Shown: positions 693-49,422 of the stretch, piece by piece
Numbering within the stretch: the stretch's first letter is position 1
How the letters are laid out: each line of letters opens with the position of its first letter
Assembly (NCBI GenBank): GCA_030698385.1
Contig: JAUYLZ010000033.1
Location: forward strand, 9,905 to 73,904
Direction of reading: 5' to 3'
Source of the DNA: a bacterium
GTDB taxonomy: Bacteria; Patescibacteriota; Patescibacteriia; Patescibacteriales; XYC2-FULL-47-12
DNA: 64,000 bases
Program-made: the position numbers and the translations under genes
Notes under the pieces: model-generated
Told to the model about the DNA's origin: nothing
Databases searched by the model: none
Seen by the model: only the letters and a program-made list of their open reading frames with translations

Positions 693-1274
693 CTAATGCA
701 AACTGTTTATAACCTCAATTTTTTTGGCCATCATCACTTCGGCAATAAAAACGTCGCCGACGTCACGACGGTAATGATAATCACTTTCATCAAGCAATGT
801 CCAGTTGATTTCCCAACCGATCATTTTTTCAAAATCACCGATTGCTTTCTTGCAGTATTTATTTTTGACACTGCCGACAAGCAACAGATCAATTGAGGTA
901 TCAGGCGAGTTTGTAAAACGGCCGGTCAAAATCGCATATTTGATATCACCGAGTTTTCTTAATTTTTCCTTAAAAGCCTCTAGATCCTGCACCTGAATTT
1001 TTACAAAAACATTTTGCAACTCATTATACAAGACAAAATTAGTATTAATCCGATAATGTTTTACATTGACCATTTTTTTGTTCACATCAACCGGTTTGGT
1101 TTCTTCAATAACGCTATCAGTAGACAAAAGCTTGGTTAATTCTTTATTAACACTGCGCACTATTGAACCGGTCTTTTTTGCAATATCGGCAGCGCTAAAA
1201 TCCTCTCCCGGATGCAGGGTTAGATACTTGAGAATTTTGACGCGAACGGCTGAGGAAAAAAGTTGAGTTAACAT
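693..1274 (-). CDS. winged helix-turn-helix transcriptional regulator with C-terminal nucleotidyltransferase-like domain
   Basis: 193 aa. N-terminus VRVKILKYLTLHPGEDFSAADIAKKTGSIVRSVNKEL looks like an ArsR/MarR-like wHTH. C-terminal LLLVGSV stretch resembles minimal nucleotidyltransferase folds. Confidence 0.5.
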   Translation of the reverse strand: MLTQLFSSAVRVKILKYLTLHPGEDFSAADIAKKTGSIVRSVNKELTKLLSTDSVIEETKPVDVNKKMVNVKHYRINTNFVLYNELQNVFVKIQVQDLEAFKEKLRKLGDIKYAILTGRFTNSPDTSIDLLLVGSVKNKYCKKAIGDFEKMIGWEINWTLLDESDYHYRRDVGDVFIAEVMMAKKIEVINSLH

Positions 1275-4961: not shown

Positions 4962-5054
4962 AATTTTGTTAAATTACAAGTTCCAAATAACAAATATCAA
5001 AAAAATTATAAATTTAAAATTTTAATATTTAGAACCTATAATAATATAAAATAA

Positions 5055-5190
5055 AAAAATCTCCGATAAAAACCGCAGATATTAGGATAATTAATTCTGA
5101 AATTTGCAATTTGCATTCAAAAATTAATACTTTTCCTCGACGAGATGTTTAACGCGAATTGCGCCTCGTTGTCTGCGGCTTGCCCCGTAA
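5055..5190 (-). promoter_or_regulatory. possible rplJ (L10) leader structure
   Basis: GC-enriched island inside an AT-rich ~400 bp 5' UTR. Outer inverted repeat ccgcaga/tctgcgg encloses inner hairpins (cgacgag...ctcgttg). Its position matches known L10 autoregulatory leaders. Confidence 0.25.
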
Positions 5191-5378
5191 AATTTAATTA
5201 TTTAGGGGATATTCAGTTATTATAGACATAATAGCATACCTTTAATTTTTGTCAAATGCATTTTTTTGTCAAAATACCACTGCTTACATATTTTATGTTA
5301 ATAACTATTTTTGGTGTAAAAATTTACTTTAATGTTAGCACCTTGACAAAAAAAATAAAAAAATGGCAAAGCAATTTT

Positions 5379-6026
5379 TTATTTTTCTTCATGTATTTTA
5401 GTAAATATTAAGTTACCGTTCCAGGAATTATTTATTAACTTTTTACCAACCCACACTTTATTCTTCTTGTAGCCTGGCCAATAATCAGGATCATTAATTA
5501 ATAAACCAGACACTTCACAATTATTATCAGTTTTATAGCCAAAACACACAACCAGGTGGCCACCTTTCTTTTTTACTTTACCATTTTCGTCAAAATTACC
5601 ACCGCCTAGCCCAGTAGTAACTGATAATATCAATATATAACCATCTTTTATTAATCGCGCTAAACTTTCAAGTGATTTCATTTTTTTTCGAAAAGATTTA
5701 ATATTATAACTCTTTAGTATCCTAACCATAGAATCATGAATCCACCCTCGCTCCTTATCATAAGCATTAATTTGCTGACCTAATCTTATAATATCGCCAA
5801 ATTTAATATGTTTTTCTTCTATGGCATGAATAACCATTTCTAAGCAAGCCGCACCACACCCCTCTTCTCTCCAATACTTTGCTTCCGCTAAATTGAGTAT
5901 TCCCCGCTCTAAATAATTTGATTCTGTAATATCTTGATCATGAAAAAAATCTTTCTCAATAACAATATATTTTTCATTCGAAAATAATTTTTTTTTCTTA
6001 ATTAATTTTTCTAATTTAAATAACAT
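5379..6026 (-). CDS. peptidase C39-like (papain-fold cysteine peptidase) domain protein, standalone
   Basis: 215 aa. CGAACLEMV matches the C39 catalytic Cys motif (CGxAcLxM). GHLVVCFGY...LINDP matches the C39 His/Asp region (HyvVl...i.DP). No transporter domain and no signal peptide. Confidence 0.6.
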   Translation of the reverse strand: MLFKLEKLIKKKKLFSNEKYIVIEKDFFHDQDITESNYLERGILNLAEAKYWREEGCGAACLEMVIHAIEEKHIKFGDIIRLGQQINAYDKERGWIHDSMVRILKSYNIKSFRKKMKSLESLARLIKDGYILILSVTTGLGGGNFDENGKVKKKGGHLVVCFGYKTDNNCEVSGLLINDPDYWPGYKKNKVWVGKKLINNSWNGNLIFTKIHEEK

Positions 6027-6112: not shown

Positions 6113-6817
6113 TTAATAAGTACTGCTAATTACCGTACCATTGCACTTATTATTTTTAAATAAATTATCCAGATTCCCCAACTTTTTCCCATTCATTATC
6201 ACAACTTTTAGTTTCAACTTTTCAGCCAATTTTGAAGCAATCGGATCAAAAGGCTTGCTCATGCCCGGCGTCCACTTATCCCCCACTATTTTTCTAAAAT
6301 CAGGCCAGTTAATTTTTTCAATTTTTTTCGCATCTTTAAACTTCTTGGGGTCTTTAGTATAAACATAATCAATATTGGATAAATTTATTACTTTATTAAC
6401 GCCATAAGCATCCGCCAACCTCACTGCCACATAATCGGTTGACCAGCCCGGTTTCCAGCCGCCAGCCACAATAATTTTTTCCTTAAACTTAATTTTTTTG
6501 TCAGCATGCCTGATAATTTCCGGGTGCGACCAGTCATAAAAAATCGTACGTACCAAATGCGCGTTCAGGCGTGAAGAATGAATCCCCAGCCAGTCGCGGT
6601 CCTCGCTTTTGATAGCTAGCACTTTTTGCGCCGCTTGCGCGTACTGGCGCGCGGTTACCCCGCCGCCGGCAACAATAATAAACTTCTTGCCTTTTTTTAT
6701 CTGTTTGACAATGGTTGCTCTGAATTTTTTTAAATATTGCCAGTCGATTCCTGAGTGAGGCACAATGAGCGAACCGCCCAATGAAACTACATACATTTGA
6801 CTATTAACATTTGACAT
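6113..6817 (-). CDS. pyrH: amino-acid-kinase family protein, UMP kinase-like (archaeal-type PyrH)
   Basis: 234 aa. VVSLGGSLI ... FIIVAGGGVTARQY matches UMPK/amino acid kinase N-terminal and glycine-loop motifs. Length fits the short archaeal-type UMPK. Confidence 0.6.
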   Translation of the reverse strand: MSNVNSQMYVVSLGGSLIVPHSGIDWQYLKKFRATIVKQIKKGKKFIIVAGGGVTARQYAQAAQKVLAIKSEDRDWLGIHSSRLNAHLVRTIFYDWSHPEIIRHADKKIKFKEKIIVAGGWKPGWSTDYVAVRLADAYGVNKVINLSNIDYVYTKDPKKFKDAKKIEKINWPDFRKIVGDKWTPGMSKPFDPIASKLAEKLKLKVVIMNGKKLGNLDNLFKNNKCNGTVISSTY

Positions 6818-7247
6818 TTAACTATAATTTATTATTTAAAAGTTTTTTTCTAAATGCTGTAAGTTGATTACCTAGTGCTTCAGCTTTTAATAGAAAGTCG
6901 TTATGAGTATTTAGAGAGATATATTTGCTATCAAGAGCGATATCTAAACATGCTACTACTTCATTTAATGATGTATGCGCTAAATTAAGAAAATGAGCAA
7001 AGTCCTTATCAGTTCCTCTATCAGAACCTTCTGCAATATTTAATATTATTGAATACAATGCTCTCCACATCTGCGAAGATAAGCAATACTTTTCATTAGA
7101 TGGAAAATCTTGATAGATTATTAATTTAACTTCACAACAAAACATTCTCGCATCTTTATAAACTTGAAAATTTCTAAATCGAAATTTTTTTATAAACACA
7201 GAGCTAGTCATAAAAAAAGTTAAATGTTAATAGTCAATAGTCAATTG
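6794..7247 (-). mobile_element. TIR-bounded mini-cassette A carrying a four-helix-bundle gene (IVS-like element)
   Basis: ~29-bp imperfect inverted repeats (24/29 match): catttgactattaacatttgacatttaac (6794-6822) versus the reverse complement of gttaaatgttaatagtcaatagtcaattg (7219-7247). They abut the ORF on both sides. The element sits exactly between the mltG stop (7249) and the pyrH-like start (6817, inside the left repeat). Confidence 0.4.
6822..7211 (-). CDS. four helix bundle protein (TIGR02436-like; '23S rRNA intervening sequence protein' family)
   Basis: 129 aa, helical, with the family hallmark AEG motif (NIAEGSDRGTDKDFAHFLNLAHTSLNEV). Confidence 0.75.
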   Translation of the reverse strand: MTSSVFIKKFRFRNFQVYKDARMFCCEVKLIIYQDFPSNEKYCLSSQMWRALYSIILNIAEGSDRGTDKDFAHFLNLAHTSLNEVVACLDIALDSKYISLNTHNDFLLKAEALGNQLTAFRKKLLNNKL

Positions 7248-7248
7248 T

Positions 7249-8295
7249 TCAACGAAGGTAAAGCGCTTTGTTTTTATTATGTTCATCAAGCGTCTCGGCA
7301 AAATATGACTGTCCGGTCTCTAAATTATTAAGAAAGTATAGATAATTAGTGTCATCAGGATAAATAGCCGCGGTAATCGCGTTCAAACCCGGGTTGGAAA
7401 TTGGCGCCGGCGGCAAACCGCGATATTTATAAGTATTAAACGGCGTATCAGTTTCTAACTCTGCCAAGTTATGCGCCGGCTTTTTGTCCTTTAAATAATA
7501 ACTAAGTGTAGCGTCCGACTGCAAAGCCATGTCAATTCCCAAACGATTCCAAAAAATTCCTGAGACCACTTTCATGTCTTCAGCGCTACGCACCTCACGT
7601 TCTATGATTGAAGCCATGGTGATAATTTCATAAACTGATTTATTTTGTTTGGCGATATCTTCGCGCATTTGTGGAGTTAATTTTTTGGAAAAATTATTCA
7701 ACATCTTTGCGATAATATCACCTGCGTTCGCGTCTTTAAAAACTCTATAAGTATCCGGAAATAAGAATCCTTCTAAAGTAGTCTCTACAGCTCCACCGGG
7801 CGCTTCTTTTAAAAAAGTATAAACATCAGCTGATTCTGTATCCACGCAGTCATTATATTTCGGGCAGTTAACCAGCTTAGAAAAAAGCGCACCTGAAGCA
7901 ATATTATTCGTTTCCAAATAATCGGCAATATCGCTCGCGCGCCAGCCTTCAATTATTTTTACTATCTTTTCATTGCTTAATGCCTCGCCACGCACCAATG
8001 TTTTGGAAATTTCAGCAATTGTCATTTTTTTGTCCAAAACATAATCACCGGCCTGAATATTTGCGCCCCAATTTTTTAACCAAATATACATTTCAAAATT
8101 AAATTTGCTGGCGATTAAATTCTGATCCGCCAAATTTTGTCCAACCACACTGACCCCTTGACCCGGATCAATAGTAAATAAAACTTCTTGAGAGACACTC
8201 TGAACAGATCCGTTAAACGAACTAAAAAAATAAACCATGACAATAACAATAGCAGTAATAGCAACCACGACCGCGATGTAAATTTTTTTTAACAT
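7249..8295 (-). CDS. mltG: endolytic murein transglycosylase MltG (YceG-like)
   Basis: 348 aa. N-terminal TM helix, then YceG-like domain (FTIDPGQGVSVVGQNLADQNLI...; C-terminal ...GQSYFAETLDEHNKNKALY). Confidence 0.85.
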   Translation of the reverse strand: MLKKIYIAVVVAITAIVIVMVYFFSSFNGSVQSVSQEVLFTIDPGQGVSVVGQNLADQNLIASKFNFEMYIWLKNWGANIQAGDYVLDKKMTIAEISKTLVRGEALSNEKIVKIIEGWRASDIADYLETNNIASGALFSKLVNCPKYNDCVDTESADVYTFLKEAPGGAVETTLEGFLFPDTYRVFKDANAGDIIAKMLNNFSKKLTPQMREDIAKQNKSVYEIITMASIIEREVRSAEDMKVVSGIFWNRLGIDMALQSDATLSYYLKDKKPAHNLAELETDTPFNTYKYRGLPPAPISNPGLNAITAAIYPDDTNYLYFLNNLETGQSYFAETLDEHNKNKALYLR

Positions 8296-31052: not shown

Positions 31053-31135
31053 GGGAAAATTTTTAATTTCTAATTGACCTAATTTCTAAAAAATTCTAAT
31101 GTCTCAATGTCTAATATTAATATCTTCTTTTTGTT

Positions 31136-32542
31136 TTAAATTTCTTTTATTGAACTTATTATTCTTTGATAAACATTAATTAGTTGACTTTGATCACTTT
31201 CAACTGCCGAAAATCTAAGCGTTAAAATAAATTTGTTGTTAGAAACTAGACCAACAGTCAGAATTTGAGTATTCAACATAGCCTCATTAACAAGACTTTC
31301 ATCGTCATAAAAAATTAATTTGTGTAACTTTATTCCGTCGTCACTCCTAACAACGCTTTTATCTTTAAATGGTAAAGCAAATTCGTAATCTAAATTTTCA
31401 TCTAAATTATCAAAATTAAAATTTTGCCAATTTTCTTGGACTAAAACCTCCATTAACACTCCTTTAACTAACTCACTAGCATTACTCACAAAATTCTCTG
31501 ACTTAATGTCTGCTATTTTTGAAAACTGATTAACCGAATTTAAAATCCATTCTTTCGGATACTGAAACTCAAATCCATACTCCCCATTCCGATAGGTTTG
31601 CCAATCACTTGTATCAATGTCAGCTGTGTCGTTACTGTCTATAAATTTGAAAGTTAAAATAATTTTATCAACTAAACCTCTATCTTCTCCAGCTTGTAAA
31701 TAGCTGGAATATCTAACGAGCTTGCCGTCTATGACCACGGCAATATCATCAGAATGAACTGCTGTGCATGTGTATTTAAAAAACTTTGCTGAATTATTAT
31801 TTATAACAACATCACTAACATTTTCAATACAACTTTCAATTTCACTTATATAATCGTCTGTGTTATTAAACTCTGGAATTACTTTTATACTTAGAGTTGG
31901 TGGAGGAACAAAATCCCCTATTAACTGTTTAGCTCTGTTAGGTGAATAATATGCCTCTTTTTGTTTTACCCAATCTTTTGGCATACTTACTTCAAATCCA
32001 TACTCCTCATTCCGATATGTTTCCCAGTCCTTCGTTGAAACTTCGGACTGCAAGCCCAAGTCATTAATTTCTGTGCCTAATAATTCAAAACTCTCGGCCA
32101 TAGCGTTGATGATGTCACGGTACTGGAACGCGCCGCGCAGAATGTATTGTAAATCGTCTTGCGTGCTAACTACTTTGAGATAACCGTCATAACGCAACTC
32201 CGCCGTAATGTCAACGGCCAAAAGCTCAACCGGATAATCTCTTCCCTTGTTCAAAGCTTCTTCACTCATGGTAAAGCCAAAAAAATACTTAACCGGCGTC
32301 TGCTCGGCGCTCACATCGCGCTGCCACCACCATCCTTGCGGCAACTTCATACTGAAGCCCTCGCTCTCGCGCGCGAGCGTCTGCCATTTGGCTAAATCAC
32401 CAACGGGGACTTGGGCAACTTGCTCGTTCTGTGCGGCAATTCCCCTGTCTTTAGCGACTGGAATTTCCCCCGCCTTCAAACAACCGGATAAAATAAACGC
32501 GGCGGCAAGGATTAAAATGGATGTTTTAAAAAATTGAGACAT
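31136..32542 (-). CDS. lipoprotein of unknown function (paralog of 32562..33506, carries extra repeat modules)
   Basis: 468 aa. Lipobox LSGC. Shares ~120 aa N-terminal domain with its neighbour (PVGDLAKWQTL-RESE, YPVELL, YDGYL, QYRDIINAM). Internal repeats DWQTYRNGEYGFEFQYPKEW / DWETYRNEEYGFEVSMPKDW. Confidence 0.6.
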   Translation of the reverse strand: MSQFFKTSILILAAAFILSGCLKAGEIPVAKDRGIAAQNEQVAQVPVGDLAKWQTLARESEGFSMKLPQGWWWQRDVSAEQTPVKYFFGFTMSEEALNKGRDYPVELLAVDITAELRYDGYLKVVSTQDDLQYILRGAFQYRDIINAMAESFELLGTEINDLGLQSEVSTKDWETYRNEEYGFEVSMPKDWVKQKEAYYSPNRAKQLIGDFVPPPTLSIKVIPEFNNTDDYISEIESCIENVSDVVINNNSAKFFKYTCTAVHSDDIAVVIDGKLVRYSSYLQAGEDRGLVDKIILTFKFIDSNDTADIDTSDWQTYRNGEYGFEFQYPKEWILNSVNQFSKIADIKSENFVSNASELVKGVLMEVLVQENWQNFNFDNLDENLDYEFALPFKDKSVVRSDDGIKLHKLIFYDDESLVNEAMLNTQILTVGLVSNNKFILTLRFSAVESDQSQLINVYQRIISSIKEI

Positions 32543-32561
32543 TGGAATTTTTGATTAATTG

Positions 32562-36497: not shown

Positions 36498-36568
36498 GCG
36501 AGATTAGTACAGTGGTAGTATATCGGCTTCCCAAGCCGAGGACGCCAGTTCGATCCTGGTATCTCGCT
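36498..36568 (+). tRNA. tRNA-Gly (anticodon CCC)
   Basis: Hand-folded cloverleaf: acceptor GCGAGAT/ATCTCGC, D-arm GTAC-AGTGGTA-GTAT, anticodon arm TCGGC-TTCCCAA-GCCGA, T-arm GCCAG-TTCGATC-CTGGT, discriminator T. No encoded CCA. Confidence 0.75.
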
Positions 36569-36699: not shown

Positions 36700-36775
36700 G
36701 CCGAAATAGCTCAGCTGGTAGAGCAATGCTTTCGTAAAGCAGAGGTCGGGAGTTCGAATCTCCCTTTCGGCTCCA
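36700..36775 (+). tRNA. tRNA-Thr (anticodon CGU)
   Basis: Acceptor GCCGAAA/TTTCGGC, D-arm GCTC-AGCTGGTA-GAGC, anticodon loop TTCGTAA, T-arm GGGAG-TTCGAAT-CTCCC, CCA encoded. Confidence 0.85.
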
Positions 36776-36779
36776 TTAT

Positions 36780-38552
36780 TTAATTCTGTATTAAGATCAA
36801 AACTTTCGCGTTAGTCTTCATTTCTGTCAAATACTGATCCAAATTGTAATTTGTATACATGGAAATCTTCTTCAGCCAATACTCGACGCCGGCGCGCTGA
36901 GTTTTTTTATCATAGAGCTTCACGACATAATACGCGCCCTCTTCCCGAATAATATCGCTAACCTCGTTTATATCCAAATCCGCGGCGACTGCCTGTAACT
37001 GCCCGCTCATATTGTTAAATTTAACAAAACCAATATCACCGCCGCGCTGCGCCTGTTCGTCCTCGCTGTATTTTTCCGCCATCTCTTCAAACTCAACATT
37101 ACCTCTGCTCAACAACTTCAATACTTTTTTCAGCCGCAAGGCAACTGACTTATGAATATCATCATCCTGGATAAAGCTGACGTTAATTTTATCTTTTAAC
37201 ACATGATAGTAAATTACTTTTTCCAAAAATAACTCCTTGGTCAAACCATAGTCATTGTATATTACATCGGTGTAATCTTCCGGCACTTCATAAGCGCTCT
37301 CATAATAATTATATTTATCAATTAAATCTTGATCCGAAACTGTAATATCGTATTTGTCAGCTAATGTGTCCAGAAGTCTTTTTTCAATCATTGCGTCCAC
37401 AATCAAATCTTTAGCCAAAAACTCACCGGCATTTTCATCTGTAGCTTGGTAATACTTTGACAACAAACGAAAATCATCCAAATATGAGGAGTAATAAATT
37501 GGTTTCCAATCCACTAAAATCGCCGGAAACGGCAGCTTGCTGATCAAAATTCTCCTCAACGCTCCGGCATCTTTTGAATAATAAACAACATACCCAAGAG
37601 CAACCAGAATTAAGATCAAAATAATTAACAGCAAAAATAAAGAAGCGACAATTTTTTTAAAATTATTTTTTAGATAAAAAACTATCTTTTGTCTTTTTTC
37701 TCTTCGCCTGATTTTTTGCCGTTCTCTTTGTTTTTGTCTTTCCTCTTTTTTCTGCTTCAATGCTTCCGCTCGGAGCCTTTTCTCCTCCTTCAGCCTGATC
37801 TGATTTTCCGCTATGTGTTTTTTTTGTGTCTCTTGATCTTGCCTTCTTTTCAGCTCGTCTGCTGCTTGTTTTTTCTTTAACTCACCCGCTTTTTGCGCCA
37901 GCAACATTGATCTTTCTTCTTTGATTTTTTGGTAATTTTTTTGCGCGTTTAACTTCATTTCTAAAGACAGTTGCCTTTTTTTCTCTAAATTTTTTCTTTT
38001 TTCATCTTTTCTCTTCTGTCTGGCCGCGATATGTTCAACTTTTAGACGCGCCTTGGCCGCGAGTTTGCGCTGTTTATCAGCGCTTAAATATTTTTCGTTT
38101 TCAGACGATTGAAAAAGCACGTTTTCACTTTTTACATTATCAAGTGATCGCAAGCCGGCAATTTTTTTTTCCTGACGCAATTTTTTATTTAGACTTCTTT
38201 TTTCAACTCCCCGCGACCAGCGTTCTTTTCTTTTCTGAATCTTTTCCGCGTTGTAAATAGAACCAAACCATGAACTCAAACCTTTGTTTTCCGGGTCGCT
38301 AATTGCTTCGTTCAAGCTCTCGGCAATTTCTGATTTTTCATCTTTTTCATCTTTTTTGTACTTTTTGCTGGTTATTATATTGTTAATTTTTTTACCATCA
38401 GACAATTCTTTTGGCTTTTTTCTTTGCTTAGGCGCTTTTATTTCGTTTGTCTGCCCGGCAATAAAAGAATCTAGCGTTTCATCCGCGCTATTTGTTTGAT
38501 CAGTGCTTTTCTGCTTTTTGATAACTTTTACGCCATCAACACTTCTTAGCAT
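36780..38552 (-). CDS. PrsA/SurA-like parvulin peptidyl-prolyl isomerase with long basic N-terminal cytoplasmic tail and one TM
   Basis: 590 aa. aa ~1-290 are extremely K/R/E-rich (KRKERWSRGVEKR...RQKIRRREKRQK), then a TM (IVASLFLLLIILILILVALGYVVYY). C-terminal PpiC-type rotamase block (GNVEFEEMAEKYSEDEQAQRGGDIGFVKFNNMSGQLQ...EGAYYVVKL). Confidence 0.65.
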   Translation of the reverse strand: MLRSVDGVKVIKKQKSTDQTNSADETLDSFIAGQTNEIKAPKQRKKPKELSDGKKINNIITSKKYKKDEKDEKSEIAESLNEAISDPENKGLSSWFGSIYNAEKIQKRKERWSRGVEKRSLNKKLRQEKKIAGLRSLDNVKSENVLFQSSENEKYLSADKQRKLAAKARLKVEHIAARQKRKDEKRKNLEKKRQLSLEMKLNAQKNYQKIKEERSMLLAQKAGELKKKQAADELKRRQDQETQKKHIAENQIRLKEEKRLRAEALKQKKEERQKQRERQKIRRREKRQKIVFYLKNNFKKIVASLFLLLIILILILVALGYVVYYSKDAGALRRILISKLPFPAILVDWKPIYYSSYLDDFRLLSKYYQATDENAGEFLAKDLIVDAMIEKRLLDTLADKYDITVSDQDLIDKYNYYESAYEVPEDYTDVIYNDYGLTKELFLEKVIYYHVLKDKINVSFIQDDDIHKSVALRLKKVLKLLSRGNVEFEEMAEKYSEDEQAQRGGDIGFVKFNNMSGQLQAVAADLDINEVSDIIREEGAYYVVKLYDKKTQRAGVEYWLKKISMYTNYNLDQYLTEMKTNAKVLILIQN

Positions 38553-38576
38553 AAACTATTTTTTAACTATAGACAT

Positions 38577-38743
38577 CACATTCCAAGAATTGATTTAGAA
38601 CGCCGGAAAAATTGTGGTAGGCGCAGTTTTGGAGCGTAGAAAATTTTGAGCCGTAGTCCCGCGTCTGCGGGATGAAAAATTTTCTAGCGAAAAACAAGCC
38701 AGCCGCGATTTTAACAAGTTATTGAGTCCATTCTTGGAATGTG
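38577..38743. repeat. ORF-less nested inverted-repeat element (long imperfect rod-like hairpin)
   Basis: Outer 14-bp perfect inverted repeat cacattccaagaat (38577-38590) / attcttggaatgtg (38730-38743). Inner 11-bp inverted repeat tagaaaatttt/aaaattttcta. Central cccgc-gtct-gcggg hairpin. Confidence 0.45.
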
Positions 38744-38752
38744 AGGTCTATA

Positions 38753-39238
38753 CTATGATTCATTATTTTTTTCCCCAAAAAAATACTGCCACCACTGCCG
38801 CGGATTTGACAACTCTGCCTTGGGCAATTCTTTATCCAAACCATCAATTACATAAATTGACTTATTTTCTTCATTAGTTCTTTCTGCCAGTTCATCTTTT
38901 ATGACAACGACACTTTCCCCCGGCTTTTTCAAGTCTAAATTAAGCCTGGCTTGTGACTCAATAAAACCTTCACTGCCCAGATAATCGATAATATTTTCAA
39001 GTTCTTTATTTTTTTTGCTCAATTTATCCGACTCTTCTTGCAGCTGTGCTATTTCCTGATTCAGTAAATACCGTTGCTTTACCTTCTTTGCCAATGGATA
39101 ACCAATTAAAATAACCAAAATAAGCCCAATCACTGGGAATAATTTTGATTTGGAAAAAAATGATTTGATTGGATTTTCCTCTCTAACGATGCGTGATCTC
39201 ATGGGTTCATTATACAAAAAAACGGCGGTATTTACCAC
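38753..39238 (-). CDS. ftsB: FtsB/DivIC-like septum formation initiator
   Basis: 161 aa. Single TM, then coiled coil LLNQEIAQLQEESDKLSKKNKELENIIDYL and ESQARLNLDLKKPGE motif of the FtsB/DivIC family. Confidence 0.6.
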   Translation of the reverse strand: MVNTAVFLYNEPMRSRIVREENPIKSFFSKSKLFPVIGLILVILIGYPLAKKVKQRYLLNQEIAQLQEESDKLSKKNKELENIIDYLGSEGFIESQARLNLDLKKPGESVVVIKDELAERTNEENKSIYVIDGLDKELPKAELSNPRQWWQYFFGEKNNES

Positions 39239-39263: not shown

Positions 39264-39683
39264 CTATTTATTTAAATATTTATCAACAGCCTTATTTACC
39301 AGCAGGTCCGCCGCTTTGTTAAACTCCCGTCTGACATGAAAAAATGTCACTTTTTTAAACTGCTGTGATAAATTGTATATTTTGAAAAATAATGGCGCTA
39401 ATTCCTTATTTTTTACTTTATATTCAAGTTTTAATTGTTTGACAACAAGTTCGGAATCCAAATAAAAAACCAACTCCTCGGCGTCCAGTTTTTTTGCCTC
39501 TTCCATGGCGCGTAAAACAGCTCTGTACTCGGCTTGATTATTCGTCGTCTCACCAATGTATTCAGCAATTTCATTAATCACCTTTTTCTTATCATCAGCG
39601 ATAACCACGCCAATGCCGGCCGGGCCGGGATTACCGCGCGCGCCGCCATCGGTGTGGATGATTAATTTTTTATGTGAAGTCAT
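39264..39683 (-). CDS. rnhA: ribonuclease HI
   Basis: 139 aa. IHTDGGARGNPGPAGIG ... NNQAEYRAVLRAMEEA ... DSELVVKQ, RNase H catalytic DEDD pattern. Confidence 0.85.
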   Translation of the reverse strand: MTSHKKLIIHTDGGARGNPGPAGIGVVIADDKKKVINEIAEYIGETTNNQAEYRAVLRAMEEAKKLDAEELVFYLDSELVVKQLKLEYKVKNKELAPLFFKIYNLSQQFKKVTFFHVRREFNKAADLLVNKAVDKYLNK

Positions 39684-39700
39684 TGTGTTGTATTAATAAT

Positions 39701-40230
39701 TCAAATCTACAAAATAATGCAAATCTACAAATTTATGCAAATATTGCAAAAAATAATTTATGCAAATTACGCCTTTTTATAGTATAAACCGTTTAGAATC
39801 CTCTTAGGAACTAAACGCGGTTGCCTAAAATTTACTAAAATTCCTAAATGTAAATTTAAAGTTACTAAATATCTCTTTACCTGATAATAATCTTCTTTAG
39901 TTAAGGAATCTCTGGCTTTGAATTCAACTATTATCTTATTTTCAATTATAAAATCTACTATACACCTAACATCTCCTTTCCCATATTGATGGTCGTTGAA
40001 GCGATATTCTCTGATATACTTAAATTTCTTTTGTTGCAATAGCTTTTCAAAATAATCTCCGTATTGTTTTTCGTTACGAAAGCGACCTAAATCCTTATGC
40101 GCCTTAAAGAATAAACCAACTATTTCATAAGATAATTCTTTGTGTATGCATTTATCTTCTGCCATAATATAATTTGCATATGAAATTTTGTAGTATTTGC
40201 ATGTTAATTTGTAGTATTTGCATTATATTT
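39701..40230 (-). mobile_element. TIR-bounded mini-cassette B carrying a GxxExxY gene
   Basis: Left flank 39701-39776 and the reverse complement of right flank 40171-40230 share ~60 bp of imperfect inverted repeats. These are built from atgcaaat and ctacaaa units (each side has ttgtagtatttgcat / atgcaaatctacaaa twice). The right repeat overlaps the last ~9 codons of recJ. Confidence 0.35.
39767..40165 (-). CDS. GxxExxY protein (TIGR04256-like, PD-(D/E)XK fold)
   Basis: 132 aa. LSYEIVGLFFKAHKDLGRFRNEKQYGDYF ... GDVRCIVDFIIENKIIVEFKA ... YQVKRYLVTLNLHLGILVNFRQPRL matches the GxxExxY family consensus. Confidence 0.75.
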   Translation of the reverse strand: MAEDKCIHKELSYEIVGLFFKAHKDLGRFRNEKQYGDYFEKLLQQKKFKYIREYRFNDHQYGKGDVRCIVDFIIENKIIVEFKARDSLTKEDYYQVKRYLVTLNLHLGILVNFRQPRLVPKRILNGLYYKKA

Positions 40231-42003
40231 TAAATCAATAACTTTCAACTGCACCTCCCGCCGGCCATTCCATTCATTAATATCAAGATAGTAAACTAAA
40301 TCAATAAACTGGCCGATTTTTAAATTCAGCCATTCCGCCGGCGCGCTAAACGCTATGGCGTTAAAAAGTTTTTTGTCCTCTGAGCACAATCTCAGTTTCA
40401 AATGCTGATTGTCGTTGCCCATCGTCTGCATATGCGCGACCAACAACTTTTTGGTTATAAACTTGGGCTGTTGGTTGCCCATGCCAAACGGCCTCAGCTT
40501 CCGCAGAGCGTTGTACAAATCCTCGTCGATATTTTTAAAATCAACTTCCAGATCAATTTCCAGAGTCGGTTCAAGTTCCGTGTTTTTCAATTTTTTCGCG
40601 GCGATTTTTTGGCATTTTTTCAAAAAAGGCAAAAGAGAATCTTTGTCCTTGACCGTAAAACCGCAGGCTTGTTTGTGTCCGCCGTAGGTTGATAAAAATT
40701 CAGCGCACTCCTCAAGCATTGCCGTAATGTCAAACTCCGGGATGCTCCGGCCGGAACCGGTCGCTTCCCCGTCTTTATCAGTAATCGCCAAAGATGGCCG
40801 GTAGTACTTTTCGGTTAGTTTGCCAGCCACAAGCCCCATCACGCCAGCCGACCACGGAGCCGTTTGATCAGTTTCTTTTTCCTGAAGACGGACAAGCGCT
40901 TGTCCGTTTTCTTTCGCGCTAACACTTAATAACTTTGGCCAAACGGCGAATAAAATTTTGTCCTCTTGCTTTATTTCCGCATCCGCCTGTTCAAAAATAT
41001 CCAGCGTAATCTCCTGGCGTTCTTTGTTTTTGCCGTCCAGTTCTTTGGCTACTTTTACAGCTTCAGCTTTATCCTCGGTAACCAAGAGTTGGTAGGCGTT
41101 ATTAGCGTGATCCAACCGGCCCATAGCATTTATTCTTGGCGCCAGCTGAAACCCAACCTGCCAAGTATCAATTTCTTTGCTATTGCCGTTTTTGTCAGTA
41201 TCGGACTGTGAAACTTTGATTAATTGTTTGAGGCCAACGCGCTGTGTTTTATTTAAAACAACCAAGCCGTATTTTACCAAAACGCGGTTCTCGTCAAGCA
41301 GTGGCATCAGATCGGCAATAGTGCCAATGGCGACTAAATCCAATAGCCATTTTTCAAAAACCTCGGCTGCTTTTTTCTGGCTTTTTTTTAATAATGCTTG
41401 CGCGAGCTTAAACGCCACGCCGCAACCGGCCAAACCGTCAAAAGGATAGGTCTCACCCGGCACCTTTGGATTGATAATGAGGCAATCGGGTAGCTCATCA
41501 GGGGCTTCATGGTGATCGGTAACGATGATATCTGTGCCTAAATTTTTACCGAAATTAATCTCGCCGACGCTGCGGATTCCCGTGTCAACGGTAATGACCA
41601 GTTTAGTTCCATTTTCAGCTAAGTATTTTAGCGCTTCATTATTGAGGCCGTATCCTTCGCTTTTGCGGTCCGGAATATACACGCTGATTAAATTTTTGCC
41701 AGGCTGCAAAAATTCCAATGTCTTGAAAAGCAGCGCGGTGGAGGTAACGCCGTCAGCGTCATAGTCGCCATAGACGGTGATTTTTTCATTTTGTTCAATA
41801 GCCTTAAAAATCCTCTCAACCACTGCTGGCATGTTTTTGAAAAGAAATGGATCGTGCAACCGCTCGGTATAGTTCGGGTTTAAAAAATTATTCACCTGAT
41901 CAGGCGTAACGCCGCGCCGGCTCAACAACCGCAAAACCACCGGATTTATATCTTTTACATCTAAAATTAAAATTTTTTTATTTTCAACCAACCGCCACTT
42001 CAT
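40204..42003 (-). CDS. recJ: single-stranded-DNA-specific exonuclease RecJ
   Basis: 599 aa. DHH motifs (VYGDYDADGVTSTALL, DHH at ...VTDHHEAPD), DHHA1 (GGHKQACGF), and C-terminal OB region. Confidence 0.9.
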   Translation of the reverse strand: MKWRLVENKKILILDVKDINPVVLRLLSRRGVTPDQVNNFLNPNYTERLHDPFLFKNMPAVVERIFKAIEQNEKITVYGDYDADGVTSTALLFKTLEFLQPGKNLISVYIPDRKSEGYGLNNEALKYLAENGTKLVITVDTGIRSVGEINFGKNLGTDIIVTDHHEAPDELPDCLIINPKVPGETYPFDGLAGCGVAFKLAQALLKKSQKKAAEVFEKWLLDLVAIGTIADLMPLLDENRVLVKYGLVVLNKTQRVGLKQLIKVSQSDTDKNGNSKEIDTWQVGFQLAPRINAMGRLDHANNAYQLLVTEDKAEAVKVAKELDGKNKERQEITLDIFEQADAEIKQEDKILFAVWPKLLSVSAKENGQALVRLQEKETDQTAPWSAGVMGLVAGKLTEKYYRPSLAITDKDGEATGSGRSIPEFDITAMLEECAEFLSTYGGHKQACGFTVKDKDSLLPFLKKCQKIAAKKLKNTELEPTLEIDLEVDFKNIDEDLYNALRKLRPFGMGNQQPKFITKKLLVAHMQTMGNDNQHLKLRLCSEDKKLFNAIAFSAPAEWLNLKIGQFIDLVYYLDINEWNGRREVQLKVIDLKYNANTTN

Positions 42004-42574: not shown

Positions 42575-42674
42575 ATACAATAACATTGGCAAAACGGTAA
42601 AAGCAAGCATTGCCAAAATCATAATAATCATAACCGCACGAGTTATTATTTTTTTAATAGTTTTCTTCTTCATA
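42575..42674 (-). CDS. possible small hydrophobic peptide (33 aa)
   Basis: MKKKTIKKIITRAVMIIMILAMLAFTVLPMLLY. Starts where the murJ start codon would lie relative to the duplicated cassette flank. No RBS check possible, could be spurious. Confidence 0.2.
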
Positions 42675-42894
42675 TAATCCTACTAATTACGAATTAACTA
42701 CAAATTTACCAATCGCTTCTACTGAAGCTTTGATAAATTTACTAAACGCATAAATTTTACTCCATTAGATCTAATTATATATGGCGCTTGTCTTTTAAAT
42801 ATTAATTCTTTTATTTTAAAATTATTAGCGACAGCTCTTTCGTAATATTTCTCTTGGAATTATTAGTATATTCTAAATAATTAGTAATTAGTAG
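42670..42894 (-). pseudogene. decayed copy of the GxxExxY cassette (two internal deletions), TIRs intact
   Basis: 42670-42760 is ~97% identical to 47765-47849 and 42762-42856 is ~93% identical to 48015-48110. Terminal repeats ctactaattacgaatt (42670-42685) and aattagtaattagtag (42879-42894) are preserved. ~165 bp and ~105 bp of the ORF are missing. Confidence 0.6.
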
Positions 42895-42910
42895 GAGTTA
42901 GAGTATCAGG

Positions 42911-47758: not shown

Positions 47759-47764
47759 CTAATC

Positions 47765-48252
47765 CTACTAATTACGAATTAACTACAAATTTACCAATCG
47801 CTTCTACAGAAACTTTGATAAATTTACTAAACGCATAAATTTTACTCCATGTGGCGTAAAGTTTGCTAAAATAGCAAGCTTTAAATTAGTGGCCTTAAGA
47901 TACGCATTTACCTGATCTATGTTTTGCTTATTGAAGTAATTACCTTTTTTTAGTTCAAGTATCACCTTGCCGGCAACCAAAAAATCAAGATAATACCTGC
48001 CAATAATTTTACCATTAGATCTGATTATGTATGGTACTTGTCTTTTAAATATTAATTCTTTTACTTTAAAATTATTAGCGACAGCTCTTTCGTAATATTT
48101 CTCTTGGTATCCATATCCCAATTCGTTAAAGACAGAATATAATACGCCAACAATTTTATAACTCAAATCTGGATAGACCAAATCCTCCCTAATAACTCGA
48201 CGAGAATACATAGATAGTTATTAGTATATTCGAAATAATTAGTAATTAGTAG
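47765..48252 (-). mobile_element. TIR-bounded mini-cassette D carrying an intact GxxExxY gene
   Basis: 16-bp terminal inverted repeats ctactaattacgaatt (47765-47780) and aattagtaattagtag (48237-48252; 15/16 match). The right repeat abuts the rseP stop codon (48253) and the left repeat starts 6 bp after the murJ start codon (47758). Confidence 0.45.
47804..48211 (-). CDS. GxxExxY protein (TIGR04256-like, PD-(D/E)XK fold)
   Basis: 135 aa. LSYKIVGVLYSVFNELGYGYQEKYYE ... GRYYLDFLVAGKVILELKK ... VNAYLKATNLKLAILANF family consensus. Confidence 0.8.
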   Translation of the reverse strand: MYSRRVIREDLVYPDLSYKIVGVLYSVFNELGYGYQEKYYERAVANNFKVKELIFKRQVPYIIRSNGKIIGRYYLDFLVAGKVILELKKGNYFNKQNIDQVNAYLKATNLKLAILANFTPHGVKFMRLVNLSKFL

Positions 48253-49422
48253 TTAGCTGAAGAACTTAGTAATGTCGCGATAAGTAACTAAAATGACGAG
48301 AAATATGAGCAAGGCAAAACCGGCGTTATGAATAAAAGCTTCGACTTTTTCCGGCACGGCCCGGCCCCGAATTTTTTCAATGATTAAAAATAAAACCCGC
48401 CCGCCGTCCAAAGCCGGAAACGGCAAATAGTTTAGTATTGCCAAGTTGACAGATAATATCGCCGTGAACTGCAATAAATAGACAAATCCCAACTGAGCCA
48501 TCTGACCAGTAATGGTTGCAATGCCGACCGGTCCGGACAAACTCTGGCTAACCCCGACGCCGGTAAAAATATCTCTAAACAACCCATAAAAAGCGGCGAT
48601 GATAAACCAGATCAAAAATACCGTGGATTTAATTCCCTCCCAAATCGCTCGGTACCAAGGAAAACTTACTAAACCGGTCTCCGCGATGGCAACGCCAATG
48701 CCAACCTCATCGCTCTCTCCCAAAACCTTGGGTGTTATCGCCAAATCAAACTCTTCACGGCCGCGTCTTAATTGATAATCAAGCTCTTGCCCCGCCTTGT
48801 CAGCTAAAAAAGCCTGTAACTGTGTATAGTTGCTAAACTGCTGGTTATTAATGCTCAAAATCACATCGCCAAACTGAACGCCAGCATTGGCCGCGGCTGA
48901 ATCTGGCAGTACCTGCATTATCTGAATGTTACGATCGCGCACTATCGCGGCCGGACTGACGCCATCCAAGTCCTGAGGCAGTCCCAACATATAACCAAGT
49001 GAAATAAAGAGAGCGGCAATGATTATATTCATAGTTACTCCGGCTGACAAAATAATACAGCGCTTCCAGATTTTTTGGTGACCAAAGCTATCGGTTTCGT
49101 CTTTGCTGTCTCCTTGTTCTCCTTTTATTTTTACAAAACCGCCCAATGGCAGCCAATTTATGGAATACACCGTGCCGTCAGCGTCATCAACTTCTCTGCT
49201 GCCCCAAACCACCTTCCACTTTCTTGATTTCTTTGGCGCCTCACTTTCATCAGCGCCGGCTTTATTAATCGGACGATAAATACCAATCGCGCGCGGCGGA
49301 AAGCCCCAGCCAAACTCCGGACAACTAACGCCGAATTTTCGCGCGGTCCAAAAATGGCCTATTTCATGAGCGAAGACAAGAATGGATAAAATTACGATAA
49401 ATATAATAATAGTGGTAAACAT
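48253..49422 (-). CDS. rseP: RIP metalloprotease RseP (site-2 protease, M50) with PDZ domain
   Basis: 389 aa. HEIGHFWTARKFGV HExxH in TM1, PDZ (AANAGVQFGDVILSINNQQF), LDG motif ALDGGR. Confidence 0.85.
   Translation of the reverse strand: MFTTIIIFIVILSILVFAHEIGHFWTARKFGVSCPEFGWGFPPRAIGIYRPINKAGADESEAPKKSRKWKVVWGSREVDDADGTVYSINWLPLGGFVKIKGEQGDSKDETDSFGHQKIWKRCIILSAGVTMNIIIAALFISLGYMLGLPQDLDGVSPAAIVRDRNIQIMQVLPDSAAANAGVQFGDVILSINNQQFSNYTQLQAFLADKAGQELDYQLRRGREEFDLAITPKVLGESDEVGIGVAIAETGLVSFPWYRAIWEGIKSTVFLIWFIIAAFYGLFRDIFTGVGVSQSLSGPVGIATITGQMAQLGFVYLLQFTAILSVNLAILNYLPFPALDGGRVLFLIIEKIRGRAVPEKVEAFIHNAGFALLIFLVILVTYRDITKFFS

Follow-up and report, generated by a model that had tools for sequence, protein, structure and literature searches.

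A four-helix-bundle gene cassette resembling rRNA intervening sequences, bounded by inverted heptamer arrays, in the mltG/pyrH spacer of a patescibacterial operon

The origin of the intervening sequences (IVS) of rRNA genes, and the role of the conserved open reading frame (ORF) that some of them carry, have been open questions since the early 1990s. The 2016 paper on the 23S rRNA IVS of Coxiella burnetii gives only hypotheses on both points (PMC4990558). In this species, the IVS measures 428-444 nt, is closed by a 28-bp terminal stem and contains the S23p ORF; upstream of the ORF lie two to three tandem GACAGAT units, depending on the strain, and the first of these repeats has the RNase III cleavage site at its start (PMC4990558). 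The same protein family was found in rRNA insertions in a survey of rRNA genes from the Candidate Phyla Radiation (CPR) (PMC11270868). ORF-bearing cassettes of the IVS type were so far known inside rRNA genes, and we report here their presence in an operon spacer. The cassette under study lies in a 64-kb stretch of a patescibacterial contig (JAUYLZ010000033.1, assembly GCA_030698385.1), hereafter the window, between the stop codon of mltG and the start codon of pyrH. It consists of a four-helix-bundle gene placed between two inverted arrays of a heptameric word. A previous reading of the same DNA from its letters alone (hereafter the sequence-only reading) had proposed such an insertion, and its claims are considered below together with the results that bear on them.

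The cassette at the mltG/pyrH junction and its empty sites

All genes at this locus are on the minus strand, and coordinates are positions in the window. The gene order manC-mltG-pyrH-rplJ-rplL runs from 9374 down to 3909. A search with PyrH retrieved relatives with 66-68% identity that keep this order and belong to two lineages (loci L039-41 and L042-44). Both lineages are free of the cassette, the mltG stop and the pyrH start being separated by 8 nt in the first (TAA cctttact ATG) and by 5 nt in the second (TAA ttatt ATG). Between empty and filled sites, the MltG C-termini align residue by residue up to the stop (NKRLYLK in the relatives, NKALYLR in the window), as do the PyrH N-termini (MTYIISLGGS and MYVVSLGGS). 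Because both protein ends align with those of the relatives, the native start of pyrH is the ATG at 6796-6794, and not the position 6817 proposed by the ORF caller, which lies inside the arm. As delimited by the aligned empty sites of L039 and L042, the whole cassette spans 6797..7248 (452 nt: 5′ arm, four-helix-bundle ORF and 3′ arm) and fills the entire spacer from the mltG stop to the pyrH start. These alignments show that the junctions of L039-44 are true empty sites and that the cassette is a discrete insertion with respect to syntenic relatives. The sequence-only reading had placed the insertion exactly at this stop/start junction, and the aligned MltG and PyrH ends on both sides of the insert bear this out; the junction is not invariant among relatives. 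A reciprocal case was also found: on the contig of a relative, a four-helix-bundle cassette precedes a gene with an ortholog in the window (693..1274, 57% identical) that lacks one. A search with MltG in GTDB genomes and JGI metagenomes gave best matches of 35-45% identity that lack pyrH downstream, and is thus uninformative for the junction.

The 5′ arm of the transcript (7218..7248, minus strand) is an array of four heptamers in forward orientation, TTGACTA TTGACTA TTAACAT TTAAC, with TRAC units from 7243 to 7219. It is preceded by a degenerate unit, TTGAACA, which contains the mltG stop codon, and is linked to the start of the cassette ORF by TTTTTT at 7212-7217. The 3′ arm (6793..6823, minus strand) is the reverse-complement array GTTAAAT GTCAAAT GTTAATA GTCAAAT, with units from 6822 to 6798. 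It overlaps the stop codon TAG of the cassette ORF (6824-6822) and contains two start codons for pyrH, an in-frame ATG at 6817-6815, only 4 nt past the ORF stop, and the native ATG 21 nt further on. The sequence-only reading was thus right in placing the pyrH start inside the left repeat. The two arms form an inverted repeat of 31 nt, complementary at 26 of 31 positions (84%) and with a spacing of 394 nt, whose core of 23 nt is 91% complementary. This confirms that the inverted repeat bracketing the four-helix-bundle gene is real, as previously noted, with a length to be corrected from about 29 bp (24/29). Likewise, the mltG stop (TGA, 7249-7251), said to lie 2 bp from the right repeat, abuts it with a gap of 0 nt.

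The arms also stand out within the window. A 19-nt arm word has only two sites in the 64 kb, both in the arms of the cassette, for a chance expectation of 0.07. When the complementarity of flanks was scored for the 69 non-overlapping ORFs of the window (median score 16), the four-helix-bundle gene ranked second with a score of 37, and the two genes of GxxExxY type that are described below ranked first and fourth, with scores of 57 and 32. By our own calculation, the chance of finding these three genes within the top four is about 8e-5.

One could also consider a resident gene whose flanks are palindromic by chance or for regulatory reasons (promoter, terminator), with no insertion at all. The DNA is AT-rich and has many weak inverted repeats, and the word TTGACA, which is the -35 consensus, resembles a -35 box. 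The empty sites in relatives contradict this explanation, and so do the restriction of the arm word to two flanks and the ranking of flank complementarity, which singles out cassette genes. Scans for sigma-70-type promoters and intrinsic terminators found neither at the cassette ends, and a promoter or terminator role of the arms was therefore rejected. Also, the variants CTAACAC and GGTGACA make poor -35 boxes. We find this explanation hardly credible.

The upstream host gene, mltG (YceG family, 7249..8295, minus strand; PF02618, E 4.7e-83), occupies the same position in the syntenic relatives. The downstream host gene (6113..6796, minus strand; PF00696, AA_kinase) is a pyrH-type uridine monophosphate (UMP) kinase, as indicated by the name UMP kinase of its database source and by the N-terminal alignment with relatives.

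The cassette was then compared with the 23S rRNA IVS of Leptospira and Coxiella. It shares with them a PF05635 protein, a similar size (452 nt for 428-444 nt in Coxiella) and, around the ORF, inverted repeats that correspond to their terminal stem of about 28-31 bp. Tandem GACAGAT produces TGAC every 7 nt, which is the core found in the window and in the fetched homologous loci, and in both Coxiella and the present cassette type these heptamers lie in the 5′ arm, in a number that varies between strains. Both elements are sporadic, with relatives that lack them, and both have a lower G+C content than their flanks. In contrast to the rRNA IVS, which are placed in an rRNA helix, the cassette lies between two protein genes of an operon. 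It has an intact, conserved ORF (39 invariant columns among 30 homologue sequences), whereas the ORF in Coxiella is decaying and apparently unexpressed (PMC4990558). Excision by RNase III is demonstrated for the rRNA IVS and would be expected by analogy for the cassette. On sequence features, the cassette is thus shown to match ORF-bearing rRNA IVS in every testable respect but location. The link of this protein family with rRNA IVS, already mentioned in the sequence-only reading, turned out to be stronger than it had stated, as it extends to size, stem and TGAC-core heptamers of the Coxiella element (PMC4990558). An Rfam search of the cassette gave no match even at E = 1.

The Rfam scan of the window retrieved only ordinary features, namely two tRNAs (36498-36568 and 36700-36772) and a ribosomal protein L10 leader upstream of rplJ (5044-5196; RF00557, 54.7 bits), and no rRNA. 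Between pyrH and this leader lies a gene for a C39-like peptidase (5379-6026), at a place where L042 has nothing and L039 an unrelated ORF of 113 aa. The same operon therefore has a second variable spot.

Encoded protein, homologous cassettes and GxxExxY sister cassettes

The cassette gene (6822..7211, minus strand) encodes a protein of 129 aa. Its assignment to the '23S IVS protein' family in the sequence-only reading was correct: the protein matches PF05635 ('23S rRNA IVS protein', E 3e-28, 98.5 bits for a cutoff of 33.8) and TIGR02436 ('four helix bundle protein', E 1.7e-25, 89.3 bits for a cutoff of 24). An AlphaFold (AF2) model built from 30 homologues has four long helices, with a predicted local distance difference test (pLDDT) score of 92.5. 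In a Foldseek search, the model retrieved 2GSC first, with template modelling (TM) scores of 0.82-0.94 and root mean square deviations of 1.1-1.6, then 2RLD and the Avd structure 4DWL; 2GSC and 2RLD have five chains each in the PDB. According to the model, the encoded protein has an Avd-like nucleic-acid-binding fold and is not a recognisable transposase. Avd belongs to diversity-generating retroelements (DGR). The likeness lies in the fold (TM 0.74-0.88 to 4DWL) and in a weak profile similarity (PF22296, NF033474, phrog_3206). The window protein differs from DGR Avd in its NF033474 score (23 for a cutoff of 80), in its neighbours, mltG and pyrH, and in the lack of a reverse transcriptase or of template/variable repeats nearby; the RVT_3 match at 39264..39683 is an RNase H.

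At E<1e-10, 720 homologues were detected, the best of them being 64-74% identical, and the hosts named for the best ones include Peregrini-, Staskawicz-, Uhr- and Gracilibacteria. A PADLOC search for defence systems gave only matches at noise level. Carriage of the cassette by phages or viruses was rejected, as neither IMG/VR (searched with the protein and with the 30-sequence profile) nor GenBank phages gave any match. The argument that the protein is more conserved than housekeeping proteins, and hence horizontally transferred, is true against MltG (at most 45%) and false against PyrH (at most 68%), and was dropped as a main argument.

DNA was fetched around seven homologues from several CPR phyla, with 63-71% identity to the window protein. 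In all seven loci, as in the window, the arm word is a heptamer NTRACNN, that is TGAC or TAAC with a period of 7 nt, in forward orientation upstream of the gene and as reverse complement downstream. Runs of at least three TRAC units with this period occur twice in the 64-kb window, both times at the flanks of the cassette, for a mean of 0.065 in shuffled sequences. In the 228 kb of fetched loci, they are almost confined to the flanks of the homologous genes, the exceptions being one run within a glycosyltransferase gene and one ORF-less inverted pair in L025. The eight host contexts are independent (mltG/pyrH, queH/tgt, GT2/mreB, pilin/pilin, GT4/asnB, pilB/pilin, PPDK/ham1 and pilC/pilin-like), and in 8/8 the cassette gene is co-directional with the host genes (2^-8 by our own calculation). 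Each arm has four units in the window and typically four to five across loci. The copy number varies even between near-identical contigs, with 9 units in L012 for 13 in L013, and another difference between L022 and L024. These comparisons show a cassette type that is conserved from one genome to another, in which a single protein subfamily goes together with one kind of inverted heptamer array. The sequence-only reading had made its interpretation depend on similar repeat pairs at other four-helix-bundle genes; such pairs flank every homologue examined, and also the GxxExxY genes of both the window and a relative.

The ORF-less pair of L025 (1640-1712) has 4 + 4 inverted TRAC units around an 18-nt loop and forms a predicted hairpin with a z of -3.3. 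It directly precedes the T2SSE/pilB start, where the operon begins, and a full cassette follows that gene in the same operon. In two other cassettes, short G+C-rich hairpins, tttccgccaaaggcggaa and ccgccttggcggg (L018 3440-3475 and L027 2095-2115), which resemble terminators or small nested elements, were observed in or between the arrays of heptamers.

More distant homologues are also associated with arrays. The homologue of the Anabaena sp. 90 plasmid pANA02 (L031 1438-1806, 42% identical) has an upstream (AGGTGAC)n array of about 300 nt and a downstream one of four inverted units, and that of the Pseudanabaena galeata plasmid pPg_01 (L032 1492-1851), in the same gene context, lies within (AAAGCTA)n and (AAAGCCA)n arrays. 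On both cyanobacterial plasmids, the gene is flanked by cas6 and cas4 within a type I-D CRISPR-cas operon. L033 contains a very divergent four-helix-bundle gene that shows no similarity in BLASTP and whose arms are made from another word, CTAAT.

The window contains two cassettes with a different gene, of the GxxExxY type, both on the minus strand. Cassette B (39690..40235; ORF 39767..40165) lies between recJ and the RNase H gene. Its flanks are made of the reiterated words ATGCAAAT/ACTACAAA and their complements, with the recJ stop inside the first repeat unit, and its score of flank complementarity (57) is the highest in the window. Cassette C (47759..48256; GxxExxY / PDDEXK_3 ORF 47804..48211; TIGR04256, E 4.9e-27) lies between an rseP-like (M50) gene and murJ. 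Its arms (47765-47781 and 48236-48252) form an inverted repeat of 17 nt, 94% complementary, and its boundaries were set by homology to a further copy, D. The two GxxExxY proteins score 94.6 and 70.6 bits against TIGR04256 (cutoff 35), and 94.1 and 73.3 bits against PF13366 (PDDEXK_3, cutoff 22). Copy D (42674..42901, minus strand), recognised by alignment and by a tblastn remnant, lies between lepA and an ORF of 33 aa. Its homology to C extends from the left arm to the host start codon; two internal deletions destroy the ORF, and both arms are kept, together with the predicted closing stem (z -4.2). The pair of cassette C and copy D is direct evidence that a whole arm-bounded unit was copied within this genome.

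Both GxxExxY genes are co-directional with their neighbours and have inverted reiterated words as flanks, so that the common architecture with GxxExxY cassettes, gene junctions included, stands as it had been described from the sequence alone. The words differ between the GxxExxY arms and the four-helix-bundle arms. In a relative, a GxxExxY homologue (69% identical) is flanked by a near-perfect repeat of 36 nt with the same words as the window GxxExxY arms. A strict heptamer period is not general for GxxExxY arms, in which irregular periods of 7-11 nt were observed. Another GxxExxY locus (L036/L037) was not usable since its 3′ end was replaced: an element of the insertion sequence (IS) family IS1595, with 20-nt terminal inverted repeats, lies at L036 1698-2415 in the 3′ end of the GxxExxY gene and has removed the downstream arm of the cassette. 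The shared architecture suggests that four-helix-bundle and GxxExxY cassettes may have a common insertion mechanism.

The arrays could also be binding sites for the encoded Avd-like protein, assumed to be a pentamer, or for a host RNA- or DNA-binding protein, and serve autoregulation or packaging. With four to five heptamers in each arm, the number of units would suit a pentamer, the PDB relatives have five chains each, and the Avd pentamer binds RNA in the DGR ribonucleoprotein. The word also tracks the protein subfamily, TRAC being found with the 63-71% identical proteins and the 42% identical Anabaena homologue, and CTAAT with the divergent protein of L033. Moreover, the similar paired tandem repeats between operon genes of Geobacter metallireducens were read as regulator-binding sites (PMC2700814). 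On the other hand, GxxExxY proteins have an unrelated fold and their cassettes the same arm architecture, the ORF-less arrays and the decayed copy keep arms without any protein gene, and common descent of whole cassettes would equally make the word go with the subfamily. We consider a binding-site function of this kind as quite improbable.

Two further inverted repeats of the window deserve mention. An ORF-less element of 185 nt (38568-38752) starts right after the stop (38753-38755) of the gene 38753..39238 (minus strand), and 15 nt separate its end from the start of the gene 36780..38552 (minus strand). It has inverted ends of 25 nt with 2 mismatches, the longest inverted repeat in the window, and its RNA fold reaches a z of -7.1. 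It resembles the cassettes as a stem-bounded insert at a stop/start junction, but has neither repeated words nor a gene. Also, an inverted repeat of 28 nt (31081-31108 and 32533-32560, 86% complementary), at rank 3 of the flank scores, surrounds a PsbP_2-like gene of 468 aa (31136..32542). This gene adjoins a paralog, which matches the same family more weakly, and was not treated as a cassette.

Predicted closing stem, processing and insertion

The minimum free energy (MFE) structure of the window cassette, folded as a 458-nt RNA, contains 23 flank-to-flank pairs, for an ensemble expectation of 23.8, and the duplex between the arms is more stable than in shuffled sequences (z = -4.8), with z between -3 and -8 across loci. 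Ten cassettes were folded at full length, namely eight of the TRAC-array type, the divergent four-helix-bundle cassette of L033 and a GxxExxY cassette of L033; in 10/10, a closing stem of 21-37 flank-to-flank pairs was predicted, both in the MFE structure and in the ensemble. A closed stem, the first check that had been suggested, is thus predicted. The interpretation given in the sequence-only reading is supported: of the three outcomes that it had named as contrary (no stable stem, an invariant junction, no similar repeat pairs at other four-helix-bundle genes), none was found.

The explanation that we favour, and hold to be reasonably probable, is that of an IVS-type mobile gene cassette inserted in an operon mRNA, transcribed by read-through and cut at its stem by RNase III. 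The cassette would have been acquired by insertion into the 5-8-nt spacer that separates the mltG stop from the pyrH start, and would be transcribed by read-through within the mltG-pyrH mRNA. The two arrays would then pair as a stem of about 25-31 bp and loop the cassette out. By analogy with the 23S rRNA IVS of Coxiella and Leptospira, RNase III would cut midway along the stem, which is probably a substrate of this enzyme. The cut would set free a stem-capped mRNA for the four-helix bundle and preserve the reading frames of mltG and pyrH, while the stops of the 5′ array in three frames and the ATGs of the 3′ array at or near the host start would keep the insertion non-polar.

Several features of the arrays agree with the last point. 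The 5′ arrays have stops (TGA/TAA) in all three frames in 8/8 loci, because the period of 7 is not divisible by 3. At the eight loci, the stop of the upstream host gene is found at -30 to +11 nt relative to the first array unit, and the start of the downstream host gene lies within the 3′ array or at most 15 nt away. In two contexts of the pilin type, the array either is read within a leader peptide or provides the start codon. We infer that the stops and ATGs of the arrays may limit polarity on the host operon, the arrays acting as translational insulators.

Some observations weigh against the favoured explanation. The fold of the whole cassette is only modestly better than that of shuffled sequences (z -1.8), and the arms of a given locus pair no better with each other than with arms of other loci (duplex energies, permutation p 0.18); therefore, the complementarity follows from the shared word. 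An impression of locus-specific heptamer variants common to both arms was not supported by the same permutation (p 0.18). There is thus no support from compensatory changes for an RNA stem, and a role of the arrays at the DNA level fits equally well. The start codon of pyrH is within the stem, so that an uncleaved stem should hinder pyrH translation, and the number of frames for which the 3′ arrays provide an ATG ranges from one to three. The 64-kb window contains no RNase III gene, which is uninformative for the whole genome. Finally, no target-site duplication is visible at the four-helix-bundle cassette (CGTTGA before the insert, ATGTAT after it), and no mobility enzyme was identified for it.

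A serious rival is a non-autonomous DNA transposon, comparable to miniature inverted-repeat transposable elements (MITEs) with a cargo, in which the arrays would be terminal repeats for a transposase or recombinase acting in trans and the RNA stem a by-product. Many transposon ends likewise have terminal inverted repeats that consist of reiterated sub-terminal words, and the empty sites in relatives, the internally deleted copy D that keeps both ends of its sister cassette C, the ORF-less inverted arrays in L025 and the lack of locus-specific covariation between arms would all be expected. Conversely, none of the three window cassettes has a target-site duplication; none is present at cassette C (TTCAG before, ATGAT after) or at copy D (ATACT before, ATGAA after). 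No transposase was seen among the scanned ORFs of the window, nor in or adjoining any cassette, and the sole one seen, that of IS1595 in L036, disrupts a cassette. The co-directional, spacer-filling pattern would need an added constraint at the level of transcription or translation, and the TRAC-array type is single-copy in the 64 kb (the GxxExxY type has two copies). We give this rival a limited probability.

Other mobile elements show a similar mixture. As the cassettes do, MITEs, REPINs (doublets of repetitive extragenic palindromes, REP) and integron cassettes form short intergenic inserts bounded by inverted repeats, with some copies ORF-less or decayed, and the cargo gene lacks its own promoter and depends on outside expression. 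Unlike these elements, the cassettes have no target-site duplication, and no cognate transposase, REP-associated tyrosine transposase (RAYT) or integrase was seen. In contrast to integron cassettes, the inverted repeat of the window cassette is split across the ORF with no 3′ attC, and the cassettes are single and scattered in housekeeping operons instead of being arrayed at one site.

Other heptamer repeats and significance of the cassettes

Tandem heptamers have been reported in other bacteria. The TAACTGA repeats of Beggiatoaceae, cyanobacteria and Bacteroidetes are direct repeats, with one indirect case, that were read as binding sites for a translational regulator (PMC4679880). Together with other cyanobacterial heptamers, they resemble the window arrays in their period of 7, in their position just upstream of start codons and in their stops in three frames; they also have TAAC every 7 nt and a patchy distribution across distant phyla (PMC4679880). 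The two plasmid homologues of the window protein in cyanobacteria are embedded in such arrays. The TAACTGA repeats are described without a link to one gene family (PMC4679880), whereas the window arrays are inverted pairs around a specific small gene.

In Geobacter metallireducens, the 'global regulator binding sites' of classes 1-3 are paired arrays of 3-5 tandem units of 7-9 nt, read as sites for integration host factor (IHF) or HU (PMC2700814). The paired arrays lie on opposite strands between adjacent genes such as proB/proA and moaA/mosC (PMC2700814), and resemble in this respect the ORF-less arrays of L025. In the examples considered, the arrays of a pair are separated by about 80-100 nt and have other words (MTYCTGA, GTTGCTYN) (PMC2700814); this distance is too short for an ORF such as that of the cassettes. 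We infer from these likenesses that the Geobacter repeats may be related to the cassettes. In the searchable literature, heptamers were found together with such cassettes only in Coxiella, and similar repeats elsewhere without this link (PMC4679880, PMC2700814); no description of cassettes in mRNA contexts was found in this literature.

Taken together, these comparisons lead us to a broader and tentative hypothesis, which we hold to be rather unlikely as a whole. The rRNA IVS would be the tip of a class of 'mRNA intervening sequences', that is self-insulating, stem-bounded one-gene modules in the operon spacers of CPR bacteria, cyanobacteria and other phyla. These modules would be excised by RNase III, and their arm words recognised by the encoded proteins (the pentameric Avd-like bundle, or the PD-(D/E)XK nuclease in the sister type), which would drive their spread. 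In that case, the unexplained intergenic heptamer repeats known from cyanobacteria, Beggiatoaceae and Geobacter would represent footprints or ORF-less relatives of such modules.

These results have consequences for annotation in CPR genomes, as start and stop codons of host genes beside cassettes often come from the arrays and are easily miscalled (for pyrH, 6817 was called instead of 6796). The cassettes could also account for some of the heptamer tandem repeats that were reported, without explanation, in several phyla. With an IVS-like element that occurs in operon spacers, has an intact and conserved ORF and leaves clean empty sites in relatives, the problem of IVS origin and ORF role moves from one rRNA context to hundreds of mRNA contexts. 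Since these contexts are comparable, the mobility, the processing and the function of the encoded protein become testable.

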